Source: Candidatus Woesebacteria bacterium | Lineage (GTDB): Bacteria > Patescibacteriota > Microgenomatia > UBA1400 > UBA1396 | Length of the DNA: 64,000 nucleotides | Direction of reading: 5' to 3' | Assembly (NCBI GenBank): GCA_021208605.1 | Contig: JAJOJK010000005.1 | Location: forward strand, 10,214 to 74,213 | Part shown: positions 30,458 to 43,163 of the stretch, in pieces | Position numbering within the stretch: position 1 is the stretch's first letter | How the letters are laid out: each line of letters begins with the position of its first letter | Notes under the pieces: model-generated | Database searches by the model: none | What the model saw: the letters and a program-made list of their open reading frames with translations, nothing else | What the model was told of the DNA's origin: nothing | Made by a program: the position numbers and the translations under genes

Positions 30458-32118
30458 TTATGAAACGCTGGAAATAACCACCATCACTAAAGGGTTCAAT
30501 CCGAACTTGTCATTTAACAAGCGCACAATGCTCTTTTCCACATCGCGACGAAGGTCTTGGCTGGACGAATCACTCGTCTCGACCAGTTCTTCGACTGTCT
30601 GGCGAATGCGATCACGCAACTCGTCTTGTGGCACGTCTTCGCCCAAGGCGACACCGCGCATGTCGATAGCAATGTTGTCTGGATCAACCGTGCCAGCTGA
30701 CTCGAGCACCGACACCACCTATGGCGCCGTTTTTTGACCGAGCGTCTCGCGCTCGCTCAAGTGCTTGCTGATTACATCGGCCACGCCAGTGCTGTCCACA
30801 GAGCGCTCGCGGAGCTTGATTTGCTCGTCACTGTAGCGCATCTTGCCGCCTGCAAACTCAACCCACTTGCCGTCCATCGGTAGCACAACTTGTTGTGGAC
30901 GGTATCCGTGCTCACGAACCTTCAAGCCGAACAAGACGCGATGGCGATCCTCACCACCGATCGGGAAACGTATTCTGGTTGCAACAAGTGCAACAGAATC
31001 ATCTGCTCGTACTCGCTGGCGTGACCAGACACGTGCAAACCAGGATTCATCTCGGCGTAGGCCACTTCGATACCTTGGCTGGCAATGCGGTTAATGGTGC
31101 GGTAGACGTCTTTTTCGCTCCCTGGAATTGCGTCGGACGAGAAAATAATCTTATCGCCTTTGCTGACGCTAATCATGCGGTGAGAACCAAAGACCGCGCG
31201 CACCAGCGAAGACCCTGGCTGACCCTGACTCCCAGCAATTATGACACAAAGTTCACTATCTGGAATATCGTCCATGCGGCGTTTATTCACCTTCATGTCC
31301 TGCGGAATATCGAGCAGGCCCATGTTCATAGCTGTGTTGACGTTTTGTTCCACGGAACGACCAATAAAGGCCACTTTACGACCATACTCAGCGGCCACGT
31401 CGACAGCCTGTTGAATACGGTGAATGCTGGAGCTCATCAAGGTCACCAAGACTTTGCCTTCTACGTCGCGCATTTCTTCGCGGATGGCAGCGCCGACACT
31501 CGACTCAGAAGCCGCTGGCAGCGGTCGCTCGATACGCAGACAGTCAATTGCCGCACACAGAACGCCTTCGCGACCAATCTCGGCCACACGTTGGAGATCA
31601 CTCGGAATGCCATCGACTGGCGTCAAATCAAGCTTAAAGTCAGAACCGTGGTAAAAGACTCCATCAGGAGTGCGAATGACTAGGTGGCGTGTATCGGGAA
31701 TCGAGTGCGTAATCCGAATGTTCTCAACTTGGAATGGTCCAAATTCTAGAACTCCATCATCTTCAAAGTACTGCACCTCTTTTTCAACACCATTATCGGC
31801 CATACGAGTCATGGCGAACTCGGCGGTGAGTGGTGAACCAAAAATCGGCACATCAACATCAATTTCGCGCAGCACGTATGGCAGCGCCGCAATGTGGTCA
31901 TCGTGACCATGCGACAGAACAATCGCGTGCAAAGTCGCGCCTTGAGCGAGTCGGTCTTGGAGGTATTGAGAGTCTGGAATCAGGAACTCAACGCCTGGCA
32001 TGGTCTCGTCTGGGAAACCAATTCCACAGTCGACCACGAGCATGTCGTCATTGTGTTCATAGACGAATAAGTTTTTGGTGACTCCAGAAATTCCTCCCAA
32101 TGGGAAAATTTTAGTCAT
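30458..32118 (-). pseudogene. rnj: Ribonuclease J (metallo-beta-lactamase/beta-CASP), disrupted by a -1 frameshift near 30935-30945 and an in-frame TAG at 30719-30721
   Basis: N-terminal fragment: VLSHGHDDHIAALPY (HxHxDH)...HVSGHASEYEQ.... The middle fragment in another frame reads FPIGGEDRH...EHGYRPQQVV. The C-terminal fragment in the same frame follows the TAG: VVSVLESAG...FGLNPLVMVV. A T3 to T4 correction restores PEYVFPIGGEDRH. Confidence 0.8.
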
Positions 32119-32194
32119 GTGAAACCCCTTTCTTACGGAGTTTTTTATTGTTGTATTTCAAGATCTGATAGGAACATTATACAGGAAAAACATT

Positions 32195-32217
32195 CGGGAG
32201 ACACCCCTAGGCCTATA
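32195..32217. repeat. Left arm of a 23-nt perfect inverted repeat flanking the UDG gene (CGGGAGACACCCCTAGGCCTATA)
   Basis: Exact reverse complement of 32907-32929. Imperfect similarity extends about 10 nt on both sides. Confidence 0.85.
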
Positions 32218-32221
32218 AAAA

Positions 32222-32854
32222 TTAAAGCAAAGCCGACCGCACCTCCGCCACATGAGCATCATGTTCTTCTTGCTCCCGAATATACGCTAACGCTTTAGGA
32301 ATTTTTCCGATATCGCGCTCAAAAGACTCTTTCATATTGCCGTTTCTCAGCGCTGCCGCCGGGTGATATACCGGCAACAAATACGTTATCTTACCTTCCC
32401 ACATAAATCGCTGCAGCACTCCATGAATGGCCGAAATTTTGGCATCCGGCAAAAAGAAATTCATAGAAAATCGCCCAAGGCTCACAAAAAGCAAAGGCTC
32501 AATAATGTCGATTTCACGGTATAAATACGGCACAAAAGCATTGATTTCTTCTGGCTTTGGATCGCGATTATCGGGCGGACGCACCTTCACAATATTCGAC
32601 ACGTAAAAGTCGTCTCGCTTCATGCCATGCATCTCGAGCGTCGCGTTCAGCAATTTTCCACCGCGACCAACAAACGGCTTGCGTTCGATTGCCTCGTTTC
32701 TGCCAGGAGCTTCACCGATAAACATCACGTCGGAGTCCACATTGCCAAAGCCCATGACCATGTCCTCTGGCTTTTCCGCTAAAGGTAGAGATTCGTAATT
32801 TGACTCGAGTTCTTGAAGGAGTTGTTGTCTTTTTTGCGTTTTGGATTCAGACAT
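32222..32854 (-). CDS. Uracil-DNA glycosylase, family 4
   Basis: FIGEAPGRNEAIERKPFVGRGGKLL...FYVSNIVKVRPPDNRDP, the family-4 UDG GEAPG motif. Confidence 0.8.
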   Translation of the reverse strand: MSESKTQKRQQLLQELESNYESLPLAEKPEDMVMGFGNVDSDVMFIGEAPGRNEAIERKPFVGRGGKLLNATLEMHGMKRDDFYVSNIVKVRPPDNRDPKPEEINAFVPYLYREIDIIEPLLFVSLGRFSMNFFLPDAKISAIHGVLQRFMWEGKITYLLPVYHPAAALRNGNMKESFERDIGKIPKALAYIREQEEHDAHVAEVRSALL

Positions 32855-32906
32855 AAAACCATTGTAACAAATCGCCTCGATAAATCTGCATGAGGCTCTT
32901 AAATAC

Positions 32907-32929
32907 TATAGGCCTAGGGGTGTCTCCCG
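32907..32929. repeat. Right arm of a 23-nt perfect inverted repeat flanking the UDG gene (TATAGGCCTAGGGGTGTCTCCCG)
   Basis: Exact reverse complement of 32195-32217. Confidence 0.85.
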
Positions 32930-32938
32930 ATTCCTTTT

Positions 32939-34048
32939 TTAATAACTCGGCAAGAAATACCGCACATTCTCTTCAGTAATCACCACTTTATCAAGCCCTT
33001 GCTCCAGCATCAGCCGCGCCGATTTTGCCACCACACCCTTCAGAGTACGCTCCAAAGTACGGATACCGGAGTCAAAACCGAGCGGACGAACCATGTTCAT
33101 CCAAACGTCGTCGGAGAAAACAATAGTGTCTTTGTTCATGCCGGCCTCAGCCAGCATTTTCGGCATCACGTAGCGGCGAGCAATGTGGATTTTTTCTTCG
33201 TCGGTGTAGGACGGCATCGTCAAGTGCTCCATACGGTCGTAGACCGCAGTGGCAATGTGGCGCGTGTTATTCGCCGTAGCAATAAACAGCACTTCCGACA
33301 AATCAACGGGAAAATCCAGGTAGTGATCCGTAAACGAGTGGTTCTGGTTCGGATCTAAAAGCTCAACCAAAACACCCATAATGTCCATACGCGCGTCTTC
33401 GGAAACACGGTCGATTTCATCGAGCAGCATCACCGGATTACGCGTTTTGGCTTGCGTCAAACCTTTGATCACCAAACCAGGCTCTGCCTCCAAGTGCAAA
33501 CGCGACTGGCCACGCAAGTCACGCGCCGAACCCATACCACCAAACGGCACACGGATTATTTCGCGACCCAGAGCCTCAGCAATAGAATAGGCAAACGTGG
33601 TTTTACCTGTACCCACCAAGCCAACCAATAGCAAAATGGGCGCACGGACAGAATCAGCTTTCCCCGCCGCCACGCTCTGTTTCTGAAACTGCAAAATAGC
33701 CATGTACTCCAGAATGCGGTCTTTGATCTCCTGCATGCCGTAGTGATGCTCTTCAAACACCTTTTTGGCCCGCTCTAGGTCTAAAACATCTTCACTCTTC
33801 TCCTGCCAAGGAACCGCTAAGGCCCATTCAATATACTTGGCAGTACGCTCGTACTCTTCAGCGTACGAACTACTGTGCGCCGCCCGACGCAAGTGCTTGA
33901 GCATACGCTCAATCTTGAAACGCAGTTCTTCAGGCAGCACTTTTTCACTGATGCGACTCGCTAAATCATCAAGCTCTTGCTGAACTAAGGGATCAATACT
34001 GGGATCAGCCACGGTCGTGGCCTGAATCTGGGCAGACTCTTCTTGCAT
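32939..34048 (-). CDS. Lon-like AAA+ ATPase lacking the N-terminal substrate domain and the C-terminal protease domain
   Basis: Aligns by eye to the Lon region from the coiled-coil through the AAA+ alpha-subdomain: Walker A LLLVGLVGTGKTT, Walker B VMLLDEIDRV, sensor YDRMEHL. Ends at VRYFLPSY, where the Lon protease domain would begin. Only 10 nt separate it from the UDG inverted repeat. Confidence 0.7.
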   Translation of the reverse strand: MQEESAQIQATTVADPSIDPLVQQELDDLASRISEKVLPEELRFKIERMLKHLRRAAHSSSYAEEYERTAKYIEWALAVPWQEKSEDVLDLERAKKVFEEHHYGMQEIKDRILEYMAILQFQKQSVAAGKADSVRAPILLLVGLVGTGKTTFAYSIAEALGREIIRVPFGGMGSARDLRGQSRLHLEAEPGLVIKGLTQAKTRNPVMLLDEIDRVSEDARMDIMGVLVELLDPNQNHSFTDHYLDFPVDLSEVLFIATANNTRHIATAVYDRMEHLTMPSYTDEEKIHIARRYVMPKMLAEAGMNKDTIVFSDDVWMNMVRPLGFDSGIRTLERTLKGVVAKSARLMLEQGLDKVVITEENVRYFLPSY

Positions 34049-34123: not shown

Positions 34124-34912
34124 TCATCTTATATTTTTGATATCTCGGTACAAATCATCAACCAAACCGGGTGGCCCATCGTCTCGACCAATAAACTCAT
34201 TGACACCAATTCCATTTAATTCAGCCACTACTGCCTGCGGATTGCTGTTCACTCGACCTTCAAGCGCTATTGTGGAAATACTGAGCTTTTTAGACAATTC
34301 TTTAAGATATTTCTCATTCAGTATTGCCTGAGTAATATCTCCACCCCGCACAAGATCAAGAATATATACCTCATACGTACCATCTCGATGCACAAGAAGA
34401 TCAAACTGATCATCCCAAGGCAGGAGAACACCACTTTCTGTTGCTTTGCGAGCAATATCTTCAGCCTGCAGACGAATATCGTTCTTATGCTTTTCGTATA
34501 CCCTCAAAAAGATATCATCCAATTCACTCAACTCAACATCATGCCGACGAATGCTTTCCTGGAATATTTTTCCAAATTTTGCCTTGCCATAAAAATCACT
34601 CCCATCTTGGGTGAGATCAGTTACATAGACTTTTTCAATTTCACCATTTTTTTCTCTTTCGATGACCCGTAGAGTTGGTGGAACGGGTAAACCAGCCTCA
34701 CGAAATAACTTCCAATTTTTTGCAAAGTCTTCCGCGGACTCTTCTCGGGCTAACATGGTAAATTCATGTCTACCAATTCTGATACGAACTCGTTCTTTCG
34801 TAGTATCTGCAGCACCAATATGAGTCCCTAGCCTTTCTGTATCTACTTGTGTAACTTCCCGAGTTGTTGCTCCGGATCCTGGTTTCAAGTGAATTTGATT
34901 ATTCTCCGCCAT
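34124..34912 (-). CDS. Hypothetical protein with an HRD...ILDL kinase-like catalytic-loop motif (atypical kinase/phosphotransferase-like, speculative)
   Basis: 262 aa reading ...FDLLVHRDGTYEVYILDLVRGGD.... No glycine-rich loop recognised. Lower GC than the neighbours. Confidence 0.35.
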   Translation of the reverse strand: MAENNQIHLKPGSGATTREVTQVDTERLGTHIGAADTTKERVRIRIGRHEFTMLAREESAEDFAKNWKLFREAGLPVPPTLRVIEREKNGEIEKVYVTDLTQDGSDFYGKAKFGKIFQESIRRHDVELSELDDIFLRVYEKHKNDIRLQAEDIARKATESGVLLPWDDQFDLLVHRDGTYEVYILDLVRGGDITQAILNEKYLKELSKKLSISTIALEGRVNSNPQAVVAELNGIGVNEFIGRDDGPPGLVDDLYRDIKNIR

Positions 34913-34986: not shown

Positions 34987-37227
34987 TTAGCTATCGCGAC
35001 GTGGGCCACGGCCGCGGCTGCCGCCACGACGATCACCACCACGATCTCGGCCACCACCTCGGCGGTCATTTCGACCACCGCGGTCGCGTCCGCCGCCTCG
35101 GTTTCCACCGCGGCTGCGACGCTCGCCACCTTCACCGTCATTGTCGGACTCTTTGCTCCACTCTTCAGGAGAAACCATCGACAAACGAATGCGATCACCT
35201 TCGAGTTGCTTCACCCAAACGTGAACGGTCTCATTGAGCTCAACCACATTGCGTGGATCATCGACAAAACCAGTGCCCATTTCAGAAACGTGAACGAGAC
35301 CAGTCTTTCCTGGAACGAGGTCGACGAAAGCACCGTAGTCTTCAATACGGGCGACCGTACCATCGAACTCCATACCTTCAGACAGTTCCAAAGTGAGGTC
35401 TTTAATAAACTTCACGGCTTTAGTGATATTTGCACGATCGATACCAGCAATGCTGACCATGCCGCTGTCGTCGATATTGACTTCAACTTCCAGGTCCTCT
35501 TGAATTTGCTTGATCACCTTACCACCAGGACCAATGACCGTACCGATTTTATCGACTGGAATCTGGACAGACTCAATCTTCGGCGCGTTCTCAGCCACAT
35601 CAGCGCGTGGTTCAGAGATGGCTTCCATCATGACATCCATGATGTGCATACGAGCCACTTTGGCCTGAGCCAAGGCAGTGCGCAGAATTTCGAGCGTAAT
35701 ACCAGAGATCTTGATGTCCATCTGCAGAGCAGTAATGCCATCGCGAGTTCCGGCCACCTTGAAGTCCATGTCACCGACGTGGTCTTCGAGACCTTGGATG
35801 TCAGTCAGGACAACAGTCTTGTCACCTTCCTTCATGAGACCCATGGCGATACCAGAAACTGGCTTGCGGATTGGCACACCAGCATCCATAAGGGCCAAAG
35901 TGCTTCCACAGACAGAAGCCTGAGAAGTAGAACCATTTGAGCTCATCACTTCAGAGACCACATGAATAGTGTATGGGAACTCTTCCTGAGTTGGGAGCAC
36001 TGGCAAGAGGGCGCGCTCGGCCAAAGCACCGTGACCAATTTCACGACGCTTCGGAGAACCGATGCGACCAGTTTCACCAGAAGCAAATGGAGGCATGTTG
36101 TAGTGGTGAATGTAGCGACGCTCCTCTTCACCTTCCATGTCTTCAATCAGCTGGGCCAAAGCCGGAGAGCCGAGTGTGGCCACCGACAGTACTTGGGTAG
36201 CACCACGTTTGAAGAGACCAGAACCGTGCACCATTGGCAACACACCAACTTCGGAAGTGATCTGACGCACTTCTTCCGTGGTACGACCATCTGGACGCTC
36301 ACCGTCTTCAATAATCATGCGACGGGCTTCTTTCTTCTGCAGTTTGCTGAAGATGTCCTCAAGCGGTGCATCGAGCAGGTCTTCACGCTCTTCACGCAGC
36401 TTGGCAATGATTTCAGAAATCACAGAAGATTTGCGTAAGTGAGCTTTTTCGACCACCGCCTCATGAATCTGATCGTGATAGGACTTGCTGAACTCTTTCA
36501 GTAAATCAGCATCAAGTTCAGGACTTTCGAAGGCAAATTTCTCTTTACCGACAGCATCTCGCAACTTGCTCAGTTCCGCAGAGATGTCAGCCAGAACCTG
36601 AGAACCAGCTTCAAACGCACGAACCATGGTTTCTTCGTCGACTTCGATAGCGCCGGCTTCGACCATCACAATCGCTTCTTTGGTACCAGCCAAAATTAAG
36701 TCCAGTACCGAAGAGGACTGCTCTTCATAAGTTGGGTTGAAAATGAAGCTGTCAGCGTCAGGATTGTAGCCAATACGGACACCAGAAACGGGACCAGCAA
36801 ACGGAATGGAAGAAATTTCCAATGCCGCCATCGAGGCAATCATCGCCAACGTGTCAGGATTGTTCTCGTGATCGACTGACAAAACAGAAGCCACGACCTG
36901 CACTTCACGGCGCATGCCATCGGGGAACAACGGACGGATCGAGCGATCAATCACGCGAGCAGACAAGATCGCATCATCAGAGGGGCGACCAGGTCGCTTT
37001 ACCCAGCGGCTGCCTTTAATGCGACCACCAGCGTAGAGGTTTTCCTGATACTCCACAGTCAGTGGGAAAAAGTCGAGACCGGATTCGCGGCCGACCGCTA
37101 CCGTGGCGTGCACCACCGTAGAACCACACTGCGCCAAAACGGCAGCATCAGCTTGTTCGGAAAATCTTCCGACAGTGAGTTGGATATCTTTATTGCCAAC
37201 TCGGATAGTTTGGGTATGAATACTCAT
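34987..37227 (-). CDS. pnp: Polyribonucleotide nucleotidyltransferase (PNPase) with an Arg/Gly-rich C-terminal extension
   Basis: RNase PH domains, KH and S1 domains are present. The C-terminal tail reads GGERRSRGGNRGGGRDRGGRNDRRGGGRDRGGDRRGGSRGRGPRRDS. Start at ATG 37227 with RBS GAAAGGAGAG. Confidence 0.9.
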   Translation of the reverse strand: MSIHTQTIRVGNKDIQLTVGRFSEQADAAVLAQCGSTVVHATVAVGRESGLDFFPLTVEYQENLYAGGRIKGSRWVKRPGRPSDDAILSARVIDRSIRPLFPDGMRREVQVVASVLSVDHENNPDTLAMIASMAALEISSIPFAGPVSGVRIGYNPDADSFIFNPTYEEQSSSVLDLILAGTKEAIVMVEAGAIEVDEETMVRAFEAGSQVLADISAELSKLRDAVGKEKFAFESPELDADLLKEFSKSYHDQIHEAVVEKAHLRKSSVISEIIAKLREEREDLLDAPLEDIFSKLQKKEARRMIIEDGERPDGRTTEEVRQITSEVGVLPMVHGSGLFKRGATQVLSVATLGSPALAQLIEDMEGEEERRYIHHYNMPPFASGETGRIGSPKRREIGHGALAERALLPVLPTQEEFPYTIHVVSEVMSSNGSTSQASVCGSTLALMDAGVPIRKPVSGIAMGLMKEGDKTVVLTDIQGLEDHVGDMDFKVAGTRDGITALQMDIKISGITLEILRTALAQAKVARMHIMDVMMEAISEPRADVAENAPKIESVQIPVDKIGTVIGPGGKVIKQIQEDLEVEVNIDDSGMVSIAGIDRANITKAVKFIKDLTLELSEGMEFDGTVARIEDYGAFVDLVPGKTGLVHVSEMGTGFVDDPRNVVELNETVHVWVKQLEGDRIRLSMVSPEEWSKESDNDGEGGERRSRGGNRGGGRDRGGRNDRRGGGRDRGGDRRGGSRGRGPRRDS

Positions 37228-37389
37228 ACTCTCCTTTCTTTGAGGAGAGGGAGATAGAGAAGTTTTCGCATCTACCGGGAAAATGATTGTTTTGTCCTGC
37301 CACAAAACGCTTACCCGGCACAGGTGAAAACACCAACTCTCTCCCGCACCTCTATGTTTTTCTTTACTTGTTCAGGGAGGTGTTTCGAA

Positions 37390-37435: not shown

Positions 37436-37705
37436 TTACTTGCTCAAACCGAGCTCAGCAATAAGCTTGCTGTAGCGTTCTTCGTCTTTGTTCTTCAAAA
37501 AGTTCAAGAGACGACGACGCTTGGCGACCATCTTCAAAAGACCCTTACGGGAGTGGTCGTCTTTTTTGTGTTTCTTCAAGTGTTCAGTCAATTGGTTGAT
37601 AGACTCGGTCAAAAGGGCAATCTGCACCTCTGGAGAACCGGTGTCACCCTCGCTCTGCTGAAACTTGTTAATAATTTGTTGTTTGATCTGCGGATCTAAT
37701 GCCAT
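37436..37705 (-). CDS. rpsO: 30S ribosomal protein S15
   Basis: 89 aa reading [16 protein letters not shown]...[39 protein letters not shown]. Confidence 0.9.
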
Positions 37706-40581: not shown

Positions 40582-40720
40582 CCTGGTTGTGGGAGCACCA
40601 ATCCGCAAACTCGCAGCTTGATTTTTAGCACTCACTTATATACAATGCTAACTCCACACCCTTGAGGAATGTGGTGTCAAATCAATAAAAAACCATCATA
40701 TAAATACTTTTTACACATTT

Positions 40721-43163
40721 ATGGCTATCAGCATTCGACACTCATCGGTAAAAAACTCCGCTCCCGCAGAGTCCAACGAGAAAACACCTGCCAAGCAAGA
40801 TCACCCGGCTTTACTGCCGCTGATTGCCTTGCGTGACGGCGTCATGTTCCCAAACACGGAAACGGTGCTCGTTTTTGGCCGCGAACAGTCACAACTTGCT
40901 CTGAATGCTGCCCAGGGATCACACAAGTACGTGGTCATCGTGGCGCAGAAAAAAGCTGCCACCGAAAACCCGACCCCCAAAGACCTCTACCAAATTGGTA
41001 CTCTCGCAAAAATTGAACGCACGCTGCAACACGAAGGTGAAACCCATGCTTTGATTCGTGGTATCCGCCGGGTTCGTGTTCAGTCATTCCAGCAAGAAAA
41101 ACCGTTTCCGGTGGTTATTGCTGAACAACTCGAAGAAAAACTCAAGCAGACGGATGAGTTCGAAGCTTCACTCAAGCACTTGTCGAATGTATTCCGCAAG
41201 ACGGTGCAATCCGGCAAAGCAGTCGAGTTCTTCAATTTTATGCAGTTGGTCGGGGGACTACAGTCGAAAGACTTGGTGGATCACATCGCTTCTGCTTTGG
41301 ATATTCCAACCCGTGACAAACAGCGCTTACTGGAACAGCTTGACGTCAACAAACGCGTAAAAGCGGTCATCGCCCACCTCACTCGCGAACAACACATTCT
41401 CAATATCGAACAAAAAATCAATAATGAAACCAAGAAGCAGATCGACGAGCGCATGCGAGAAAACGTCTTACGCGAACGCATGCAGGCTATCCAGCGCGAA
41501 CTCGGCGAACTCGACGAAGAAGAAGAGCTCGACGAACTCGAAGAGCGCATCAAAAAAGCGCGCATGCCAAAAAAGATTGAGGAAAAAGTCACCAAAGAAC
41601 TGCGTCGTTTACGCCAGATGTCGCCGATGCACTCGGAGTACTCCTATGTCATGAGCTGGCTAGAGTCGATGCTCGACATGCCCTGGAGCAAAAAATCACG
41701 GGGTCGTACTTCTCTCAAGCGCGCGGCGAAGGTGTTAGATCAGCAGCACTATGGTCTCGAAAAGGTGAAAGAACGCGTCTTAGAGCATTTGGCCGTCATG
41801 AAGCTGCGCGAACAAGATGGGAGCAAGTCTTCAAAAAAGAAAAATACCGACGACAAAACCCCACGTAAAAAATGTGCTGCCCACGATTCTCTGTTTTGTC
41901 GGTCCGCCTGGTGTGGGTAAAACATCAATTGGCCGTTCGATTGCTGAGTCGCTTGGTCGAGAGTTCGTGAAGGTGTCTTTGGGCGGCGTCCATGATGAGG
42001 CCGAAATCCGCGGACATCGTCGAACCTATGTCGGTGCTATGCCAGGAAAAATCATGCAAGGCATGGCGCAGGCTGGTACCAAAAACCCAGTTTTTATGCT
42101 CGATGAAGTCGACAAACTCGGCTCTGATTTTCGGGGTGATCCTTCCGCGGCTCTCCTAGAAGCCTTGGATCCAGAGCAGAACTTTGAGTTTACCGACCAC
42201 TATCTGGGCGAACCATTTGATCTCTCTGATGTGATGTTCATCACCACAGCTAACGTTTTGCACACGATTCCTGGTCCGCTCCGCGATCGTCTGGAAATTG
42301 TCGAATACACTGGATACACCTACGAAGAAAAATTCAACATTGCGCAGCAGTACCTGATTGATCAGGTTCGTGAAGGCGCCGGACTGAAGAAAACACAGTT
42401 TTCACTTACTGATGGCGCGCTCCGCGAAGTCATTGAACACTACACGCGTGAGGCTGGCGTTCGTGCTTTGAAGCGAGAGATTGCCAAAGTGGCGCGAAAA
42501 GTCGCGCGGCAAATCGCCGAAAAAGAAACAAAAAACGTCAAAGTCGAAAAACGCACCGTCAGCGACTACCTCGGTCCGATCAAAGTAATCGACACGCTCA
42601 TGGAGCTCGAAGACCAAATTGGTTTAGTGAACGGTTTAGCCTGGACGAGCACCGGCGGAGAAGTCATGCACATTGAGGCCGCACTCGCCACTGGCCAGGA
42701 AGGCTATACCATTACCGGTCAGCTCGGCGAAGTGATGAAAGAATCAGTCAAGGCGGCCTACACCTATGTTCGCTCGCACGCTGAGGAACTCGGGATTACG
42801 CCGCAAGCGTTCAAACATAACCACGTCCACATCCATGCTCCGGAAGGAGCTGTACCAAAAGATGGACCTTCGGCCGGTATTGCGTTGACGACTGTAATCA
42901 CGTCAGTTTTTGCCGAGAAAAAGATCAAACACACGGTGGCGATGACAGGCGAGGTGACGCTTCGCGGCAGAGTGTTACCCATTGGTGGATTAAAAGAAAA
43001 ACTCATTGCGGCACACCGAGCCGGCGTAAAACAGGCCTTTATTCCTAAACAGAATGAGAAAGACCTTGTCGACGTCCCAGAAAAGGTGAAAAAAGATATC
43101 ACCATTATCCCGGTGGAACACGTTAGCGAAGTCCTTGATCAGGCGCTTATCTGGAAAAAATAA
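40721..43163 (+). pseudogene. lon: ATP-dependent protease Lon (LonA), split by a +1 frameshift within 41817-41920 (poly-A runs)
   Basis: The Lon N-domain and coiled coil are in ORF 40721-41920. ORF 41817-43163 carries LPTILCFVGPPGVGKTS (Walker A), the AAA+ domain, and the protease domain with the PKDGPSAGIA Ser and K. The frames overlap across A6 tracts, and deleting one A restores a continuous ORF. Confidence 0.85.

Follow-up and report, generated by a model that had tools for sequence, protein, structure and literature searches.

According to a review, every Lon enzyme combines an ATPase with a protease domain, and the subfamilies A, B, BA, and C are distinguished (PMC9569914). The stretch of DNA analysed here, 64,000 nucleotides (nt) of a Candidatus Woesebacteria bacterium (contig JAJOJK010000005.1, positions 10,214 to 74,213; hereafter the window), encodes a canonical Lon and, in addition, a Lon-type protein of 369 amino acids (aa) that has no protease domain. 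The gene for this short protein, below referred to as the AAA gene, occupies positions 32939–34048 on the minus strand. It is likely a dedicated, long-diverged LonA paralogue consisting of a three-helix bundle and the AAA+ module only, which acts as a non-proteolytic ATP-driven remodeller, chaperone, or switch.

Lon belongs to the HCLR clade together with ClpX, HslU, and RuvB, single AAA+ ring ATPases that, like the short protein, carry no fused protease. The short family differs from ClpX and HslU in having no aromatic pore loop and from RuvB in showing no evidence of DNA translocation; no ClpP- or HslV-docking element was identified in it. LonA enzymes, such as those of Escherichia coli, Bacillus subtilis (3M6A), Meiothermus taiwanensis (7FD4), and human (LONP1), have the three-helix bundle, the AAA+ alpha/beta domain, and the lid in common with it. 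The Walker A and B, sensor-1, arginine-finger, and sensor-2 residues are identical, and the pre-sensor-1 hairpin region is conserved. In contrast to LonA, members of the short family possess neither the LON N-domain nor the S16 protease domain, do not conserve the pore-loop-1 tyrosine and the GHRR and RGDP motifs, and form a separate clade. An engineered E. coli protein composed of the three-helix bundle and AAA+ module (6N2I) covers nearly the same span, with a profile match to chain residues 9–339 of 344. That protein is a laboratory truncation of a protease, whereas the window protein represents a natural family under selection, with pore-loop and lid motifs of its own. LonC of Meiothermus taiwanensis (PMC3391209, PMC13069640) is likewise a Lon-family member minus one of the two activities. 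The two are mirror images, however: LonC combines an active protease with a dead ATPase, while the short family has an intact ATPase site and no protease. By the definitions given in PMC9569914, LonB and LonBA have a membrane anchor or an AAA+ insertion in addition to a protease domain, and LonC has a degenerate ATPase and an active protease; the short protein, with its intact ATPase motifs and no protease domain, is none of these.

The open reading frame (ORF) extends from an ATG to a TAA stop codon at 32939–32941. Its product is identical over the full length to the NCBI entry 'AAA family ATPase [Candidatus Woesebacteria bacterium]', and seven contigs of independently made assemblies of this organism encode the same 369-aa sequence. 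The first-pass annotation, made from the nucleotide sequence and its translations, had described a Lon paralogue without N-domain and protease domain and had proposed a profile search for the domain boundaries. That search bears the description out. Pfam matched AAA (aa 139–275) and Lon_lid (aa 301–351) and no other domain; neither PF02190 (LON N-domain) nor Lon_C (PF05362, the S16 Ser-Lys protease domain) was matched. The NCBIfam model TIGR00763 'endopeptidase La' aligned aa 25–354 with model positions 253–571 of 795 (E = 1e-95), so that the alignment begins only at position 253. The score of 321.9 bits is below the curated equivalog threshold of this model (608.05), and the cut-off of NF008053 was missed as well (239.9 bits vs. 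891). Since the protein lacks both domains, scores below the curated thresholds, and is also devoid of the pore-loop tyrosine, we class it as a Lon-derived AAA+ ATPase and not as a Lon protease. Below these two endopeptidase La (LonA) models, the remaining NCBIfam matches were weak and to unrelated AAA+ families (RFC, ClpA, and others), with no LonB-type model among them. The G+C content of the gene (0.51) is like that of the flanking core genes. PADLOC returned weak generic AAA matches only, the best being DolB at 28 bits, and the neighbours are housekeeping genes; a component of a defence system (BrxL, IetA/IteA, and others) was rejected because of the lack of a significant PADLOC match and of a defence-island context.

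The short protein shares 38% identity with the canonical Lon of the window across 250 gap-free residues (aa 117–366) and 33% identity in a second stretch (aa 32–124), which includes the helices ahead of the ATPase. This agrees with the initial reading of an alignment from the region before the ATPase through the lid. The C-terminal motif YFLPSY (aa 364–369, 32942–32959), with which the protein ends, lies opposite the sequence DYLGPIK of the canonical Lon and aligns with the LonA lid–protease linker Y-L-G-x-x-(k)-F. This linker is located directly ahead of Lon_C, which starts at residue 242 of the second lon ORF (41817–43163), so the short ORF ends in the linker, just short of the protease domain, in agreement with the first reading. 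A tblastn search of the 64-kb window (E <= 1) found the canonical lon (42540–43160) as the sole Lon_C-like coding sequence, in line with the earlier statement that no protease domain is hidden in another frame downstream.

The AlphaFold (AF2) monomer model of the protein has a predicted local distance difference test score (pLDDT) of 91.2 and a predicted template modelling (pTM) score of 0.83. It displays a disordered tail, variable in the family, of 19 N-terminal residues (33992–34048), three helices at aa 20–78 (33815–33991, pLDDT above 90), the alpha/beta domain, and the lid. The helices (aa 20–35, 40–58, and 62–78) align to 3M6A and 6N2I and correspond to the three-helix bundle described ahead of the LonA AAA+ module (PMC8244335). 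This terminal bundle is all that is present of a coiled-coil portion, and the long LonA coiled coil is missing; of the coiled-coil and AAA+ module reported at first, only the AAA+ part therefore stands as worded. The top Foldseek matches in the PDB were all LonA (LONP1, Yersinia, Thermus, Meiothermus), with query-normalised TM values of about 0.8 and root-mean-square deviations of mostly 2.5–3 Å across about 345 columns. Sequence profile matches in the PDB were to LonA only, with E = 2e-93 for B. subtilis Lon (3M6A).

The nucleotide-binding site was examined by comparing alignment columns of 40 members of the short family with those of 82 LonA proteins. Residues G143, G146, G148, K149, and T150 of the Walker A motif GLVGTGKT (aa 143–150, 33599–33622) and residues D210 and E211 of the Walker B motif VMLLDE (aa 206–211, with LLDE at 208–211; 33416–33433) are invariant in both sets. 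The same is true of the sensor-1 residue N260 (33269–33271) and the arginine finger R272 (33233–33235), which together span 33233–33271, and of the sensor-2 residue R330 (33059–33061). Walker A and Walker B were found in 77 of 77 species, so the motifs are as intact as initially stated. Selection on the nucleotide site, including the trans-acting arginine finger, implies an oligomeric, ATP-hydrolysing enzyme. Judged from these residues, the short protein is predicted to hydrolyse ATP and, because the arginine finger is kept, to form an oligomeric, probably hexameric, ring.

The pore loops have been rewritten. The pore-loop-1 tyrosine, part of an aromatic–hydrophobic pair (T-Y-[VI]-G) that serves substrate translocation, is present in all 82 LonA proteins, in the context G-H-R-R-T-Y-[VI]-G-A-M-P-G, which reads G-Q-S-R-L-H-L-E-A-E-P-G in the short family. 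In the window protein, the equivalent segment is RLHLEAEPG (aa 183–191, 33476–33502), with H185 at the tyrosine site. Across 77 species of the short family, this position is occupied by H (35), L (14), R (7), I (6), V (5), Y (4), N (3), and F (3), an aromatic residue thus being found in just seven. The LonA pore-loop-2 motif [FY]-R-G-D-P, followed by A or S, is replaced by A-R-M-D-I (ARMDIM, aa 219–224, after Walker B), the positions of LonA G221, D222, and P223 being taken by M/A, D, and I. In the alpha-helical lid (aa 283–350, 32999–33202; Pfam Lon_lid), Y-T-R-E-A-G-V-R of LonA gives way to R-P-L-G-[FY]-D-[AS]-G-I-R, which is RPLGFDSGIR in the window protein. Residues R321, P322, L323, G324, D326, G328, and R330 are invariant across 63 sequences. 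The hinge glycine of the LonA Y-L-G sequence (Gly580; PMC8244335) is replaced by proline (P367).

Orthologues were checked for their length, as had been proposed, and they are consistently short. The 120 best homologues from a search of 5.8 billion proteins (57–90% identity) are all 327–421 aa long, and 0 of the 120 have a Lon_C-like domain. A scan of one genome per GTDB species revealed at least 583 genomes with a relative, and the best 80 loci (52–96% identity) were studied. The 79 complete genes among them, each from a different species, encode 295–393 aa (median 353). All terminate at FLPx(Y/W/F) or FLPx, the latter without a terminal aromatic residue in about a quarter of members, and the stop has the same alignment position throughout. 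A tblastn search with the Lon protease domain gave no match within 8 kb on either side in any of the 80 loci. Distant cluster representatives (37–54% identity), two of which are named Candidatus Dojkabacteria, also consist of AAA and Lon_lid only. Additional domains in the longer members were ruled out, their extra length being due to low-complexity tails rich in Q, P, S, and N.

In a neighbour-joining tree of the shared region (339 columns; 81 sequences, i.e. all 40 short forms and 41 of the 82 LonA), the short forms were placed in one clade apart from the sampled full-length LonA, including the Lon of the window, with bootstrap support of 100/100. Between the window and a sister species (locus L008), the AAA gene is 84.7% identical at the DNA level and 96% at the protein level, without indels. 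The ratio of non-synonymous to synonymous substitution rates (dN/dS) is 0.021, with dS about 1.2. The gene is under strong purifying selection. Being short in more than 80 species, monophyletic, and selected in this way, the protein is a dedicated ATPase-only paralogue, one of the possibilities raised initially.

The family occurs in at least about 580 species-level genomes of the candidate phyla radiation (CPR)/Patescibacteria, in Microgenomates-type lineages and Dojkabacteria. Its members are over-annotated by JGI as 'ATP-dependent Lon protease' and under-annotated by NCBI as 'AAA family ATPase'. A full-text literature search with incomplete coverage revealed nothing on a protease-less Lon and nothing on Lon in CPR/Patescibacteria, and the family is apparently undescribed so far. 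Many of the small-genome CPR metagenome-assembled genomes with the short gene (L008–L087) are titled 'uncultured Pseudomonadales/Gammaproteobacteria bacterium' and one 'Bathyarchaeia archaeon'. These titles look wrong, the gene content and the protein relatives being Patescibacteria-like. Very long proteins of about 900–3,900 aa with two or three tandem Lon-type AAA+ stretches (P0121–P0137, P0141, P0152, and others) top the list when homologues are ranked by summed score; these may represent Lon derivatives with multiple AAA modules, genes of eukaryotes, or mis-predictions.

In the relatives, the AAA gene belongs to a same-strand arrangement, (rpsO-pnp)-AAA-(0 to 2 variable genes)-udg-rnj. The downstream context was counted over 69 loci with at least 3 kb of sequence beyond the AAA gene. 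The RNase J gene (rnj) follows on the same strand in 67 of these loci, within 2.5 kb in 62 and as the immediate neighbour in 11. A gene for a family-4 uracil-DNA glycosylase (UDG) lies between the AAA gene and rnj in 50 of the 69, the distance from the AAA gene being within 200 nt in 29 loci and within 30 nt in 20. Overlaps of 1–4 nt between the AAA gene and udg or rnj occur in some species, and in a 43%-identical member the AAA stop codon overlaps the udg start. These short or overlapping distances argue for co-transcription in many species. The polynucleotide phosphorylase (PNPase) gene is located immediately upstream in 22 of 79 loci, which belong to one subclade. The arrangement does not extend to all members: another, divergent one lies near pnp but has pilM/ftsA-like and ftsK genes downstream.

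The corresponding genes of the window are pnp (34987–37305), the AAA gene, udg (32222–32854), and rnj (30488–32118), all on the minus strand, with rpsO (S15; 37436–37705) ahead of pnp. The AAA gene and pnp are separated by an ORF of 262 aa (34124–34912, minus strand; G+C content 0.42) without a Pfam, NCBIfam, or PADLOC match. Its conservation is poor even in the sister species (33% identity over part of its length), and it looks like variable DNA that was possibly acquired. RNase J has one frameshift near 30967, a tblastn search with the L008 RNase J giving two frames, so that the window encodes 398 aa plus a remainder. The same split is present in the Logan assembly L094, while the protein is intact (552 aa) in three other assemblies of the organism. 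UDG is 210, 177, or 153 aa long among the assemblies. The frameshift and the varying UDG length point to error-prone assembly.

Family-4 UDGs usually carry a 4-Cys Fe-S cluster. The 210-aa UDG of the window (PF03167; TIGR00758, 159.5 bits vs. a cut-off of 125.3) has no Cys, although the GEAPG and HPAA motifs are kept. Among 57 UDGs encoded beside the short AAA gene, 39 have no Cys and 13 have one, and this UDG clade appears to lack the cluster, judging by cysteine content. The G+C content of the window UDG region is 0.44–0.45 vs. about 0.52 in the neighbours.

With the grip-and-pull elements of LonA, the N-domain, and the protease chamber all absent, a non-degradative remodeller or switch is the most economical interpretation of the short protein. 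It would work as an ATPase ring, using the intact nucleotide-binding and hydrolysis residues with the trans-acting arginine finger, and would act without degrading, as an ATP-driven remodeller, chaperone, or switch. Its action would probably not be processive Tyr-paddle unfolding into a protease chamber. The stand-alone unfoldase suggested in the first-pass annotation is weakened in this respect, because the family does not retain the pore-loop-1 tyrosine and the RGDP motif of pore loop 2; a processive unfoldase seems less likely. Proteolytically inactive yeast Lon reportedly still supports complex assembly, which we count in favour of a non-proteolytic role. Under this interpretation, our confidence in a generic protein remodeller or chaperone falls just short of even; a remodeller tied to PNPase, UDG, and RNase J is a much fainter prospect, and what remains goes to some other role.

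Several points weigh against the interpretation. Most contacts in the LonA hexamer are made by the protease domain and by the N-terminal coiled coil. As both are absent from the short protein, a stable stand-alone ring is only putative. The loss of the pore-1 aromatic residue speaks against classical threading, so that 'remodeller' is a weak, broad label. The nucleic-acid gene context is not shared by all members: in a divergent lineage (43% identity), the gene and groES-groEL are transcribed in opposite directions from a common intergenic region (L096, 1344–2949; also L090), and a Dojkabacteria member sits amid unrelated genes. In many loci, a glycosyltransferase gene, a Fic/Doc-like ORF, or genes of unknown function separate udg from the AAA gene; given these variable genes, the gene order may be inherited synteny. 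The 127-nt intergenic region shared with groES-groEL in L096 contains no clear controlling inverted repeat of chaperone expression (CIRCE).

Among the alternatives, an accessory ATPase of a nucleic-acid module, which would act on or with PNPase, RNase J, or UDG and might, for example, remodel RNA-degradosome-like complexes or free product-bound UDG from DNA, fares best and is nevertheless doubtful. The strongly conserved same-strand pnp-AAA-udg-rnj order, with its overlaps and very short gaps in many species, agrees with such a function, as do the RNase Y and HU genes that also lie near the AAA gene in the window. In addition, a family-4 UDG-like gene lies within 3 kb of an unrelated, phage-borne type of protease-less Lon at 5 of 13 loci. 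However, the pore-loop segments are acidic (E-A-E-P-G) and ill-suited to nucleic-acid threading, the gene context is lost in divergent members, unrelated genes frequently separate the partners, and CPR genomes probably retain the synteny of unrelated housekeeping genes. Somewhat more doubtful again is the idea that the CPR-specific Lon-derived ATPase is the energy-dependent part of a minimal nucleic-acid turnover/repair operon (PNPase – Lon-AAA – Cys-less family-4 UDG – RNase J), in which it might remodel or recycle PNPase, UDG, RNase J, or their nucleoprotein substrates.

The phage-borne type, an independent precedent for a Lon without protease, was found on viral contigs (IMG/VR L100–L107, L109, L110, and L113; for example, L106, 2203–3975). 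Like the short CPR family, it has a Lon-type AAA+ domain and a lid and ends ahead of the protease domain, with no Lon_C within 3 kb of the genes and often with a family-4 UDG-like gene nearby. Unlike it, it retains the LON N-domain and the RGHRRTY pore loop, is 532–626 aa long, and ends in a conserved basic-[IV]GF tail (KIGFSAG, RVGFSGG, KRIGF, and others). Its AAA+ module is 44–51% identical to that of canonical Lon and 29–34% identical to the short CPR family. By these pairwise identities, the two types appear to have separate origins, and loss of the Lon protease domain probably happened more than once. The UDG-like gene is located 1.6–2.5 kb upstream in the five loci. Its presence may make a chance association of AAA and UDG genes slightly less likely; the recurrence could reflect a real, undescribed partnership of a Lon motor and a UDG fold. 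The phage-contig UDG-like gene has a CxxC motif, a dCMP-deaminase-like gene also occurs upstream in several loci, and an unknown ORF of 283–298 aa lies 2–3 nt downstream of the phage-contig Lon. The viral-contig relatives of the window protein are 29–35% identical to it in 16 of 18 loci, and one locus (L108) encodes a full-length Lon with Lon_C, 41% identical in the best segment. A phage origin of the AAA gene was rejected, as no close relative was present among the viral-contig matches.

The canonical lon of the window (40721–43163, plus strand) encodes N-domain, AAA+, lid, and Lon_C according to Pfam and NCBIfam, and its product falls in the LonA clade. The gene regarded earlier as a bona fide Lon is therefore a canonical LonA; it is not intact in this assembly, being split into the ORFs 40721–41920 and 41817–43163 by one extra A in a homopolymer (near 41866–41871). 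Where the window has the A6 run 'cgtAAAAAAtgtg', a 97%-identical protein has A5 and reads P-R-K-N-V-L-P. In L091, a different assembly of this organism, the site has A5 as well, yet lon is broken elsewhere. Rather than a genuinely split gene, this is most likely an indel error of the assembly. At 40625–40651 (plus strand), 70 nt upstream of the lon start, lies a CIRCE-like inverted repeat, TTAGCACTC-N9-CAATGCTAA, with two mismatches to the consensus; 0.03 such sites per window are expected by chance. This site suggests HrcA-type heat-shock control of the canonical lon. Being the sole CIRCE-like site in the 64-kb window, with none near the AAA gene, it also led us to rule out heat-shock (CIRCE) control of the latter.

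These data bear on the possibility that the short protein is a regulatory subunit of the canonical Lon, tuning proteolysis in mixed rings or as a cap, which we regard as distinctly improbable. Both genes are present in this organism and in L008, and the arginine finger and the interface-forming AAA+ fold are conserved, both points in its favour. However, the two proteins are only 38% identical and diverged long ago, the operator found at lon alone argues for separate regulation, and the AAA gene and lon are not syntenic in the other 78 loci. The two genes were seen together only in this organism and L008; no contig was common to the top 120 short-form and the top 120 canonical-Lon homologues, a comparison limited to those lists.

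Still less probable, and very much so, is one half of a split Lon, i.e. an ATPase that docks on a separately encoded protease (an S16 domain or another peptidase) as ClpX does on ClpP. The conservation of the C-terminal motif FLPx(Y/W/F) would agree with it, and the basic-[IV]GF tail of the phage analogue is reminiscent of the IGF loop with which ClpX docks on ClpP, or may be a remnant of the LonA linker. Against this idea, no Lon_C-like ORF occurs within 8 kb in the 80 loci or elsewhere in the window, about a quarter of members have no terminal aromatic residue, the tail looks like a LonA-linker remnant, and the pore-loop tyrosine for translocation is lost.

The udg gene of the window is bracketed exactly by an inverted repeat with arms of 40 nt that are 85% complementary. 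The left arm (32186–32225) overlaps the udg stop codon, and the right arm (32899–32938) directly follows the AAA stop codon. The exact 23-nt core, present in two copies in the window vs. 0 expected by chance, begins 10 nt beyond this stop codon; the 10-nt gap given in the first-pass annotation thus holds for the core, whereas the extended arm adjoins it directly. The palindrome TAGGCCTA is found in both arms. The repeat might serve in long-range mRNA pairing or as paired protein sites, or be what is left of a mobile element. It occurs in the window and in L091–L094, further assemblies of this organism, and is missing from L008, L009, and L001. Precisely at the end of the AAA stop codon, DNA homology with L008 ceases, and the AAA–udg spacer is 67 nt long in the window vs. 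674 nt in L008 (9111–9784). This spacer acts as a variable-DNA hot spot, but the coding end of the AAA gene is left untouched. The 674-nt insert of L008 contains an ORF of 78 aa followed by one of 167 aa, the latter with an NGNKR motif and a weak Fic/DOC match (23 bits, cut-off 24); the two may be a toxin–antitoxin pair. The recurring AAA-udg-rnj order in relatives identifies UDG as an ancestral neighbour and not an insertion; what sets this organism apart is the inverted repeat alone.

That the AAA gene is a truncated lon or a pseudogene, which lost its protease domain recently, for instance when the inverted-repeat-flanked UDG segment was inserted as the first-pass annotation had alternatively proposed, is refuted by the comparison with relatives: the repeat arm at the stop codon and the end of DNA homology with L008 at this very point would fit it, but the stop has the same position in 79 species with no Lon_C contiguous or nearby, the short forms are a deep monophyletic clade, UDG is a conserved neighbour (50 of 69 loci), the repeat is absent from relatives with the same short gene, and the dN/dS of 0.02, lack of indels vs. 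L008, and core-like G+C content rule out a pseudogene.

The protease domain is retained in every described Lon subfamily (A, B, BA, and C), while the short clade keeps only the intact motor, with both pore loops rewritten. The Lon AAA+ module can thus come under selection for a task other than proteolysis. CPR proteomes are minimal, and a gene kept in hundreds of species with a dN/dS of about 0.02 is therefore probably important to these bacteria. The family provides an entry point to the activity of a Lon motor that has neither protease nor N-domain, and also to a possible functional link behind the pnp-AAA-udg-rnj arrangement.

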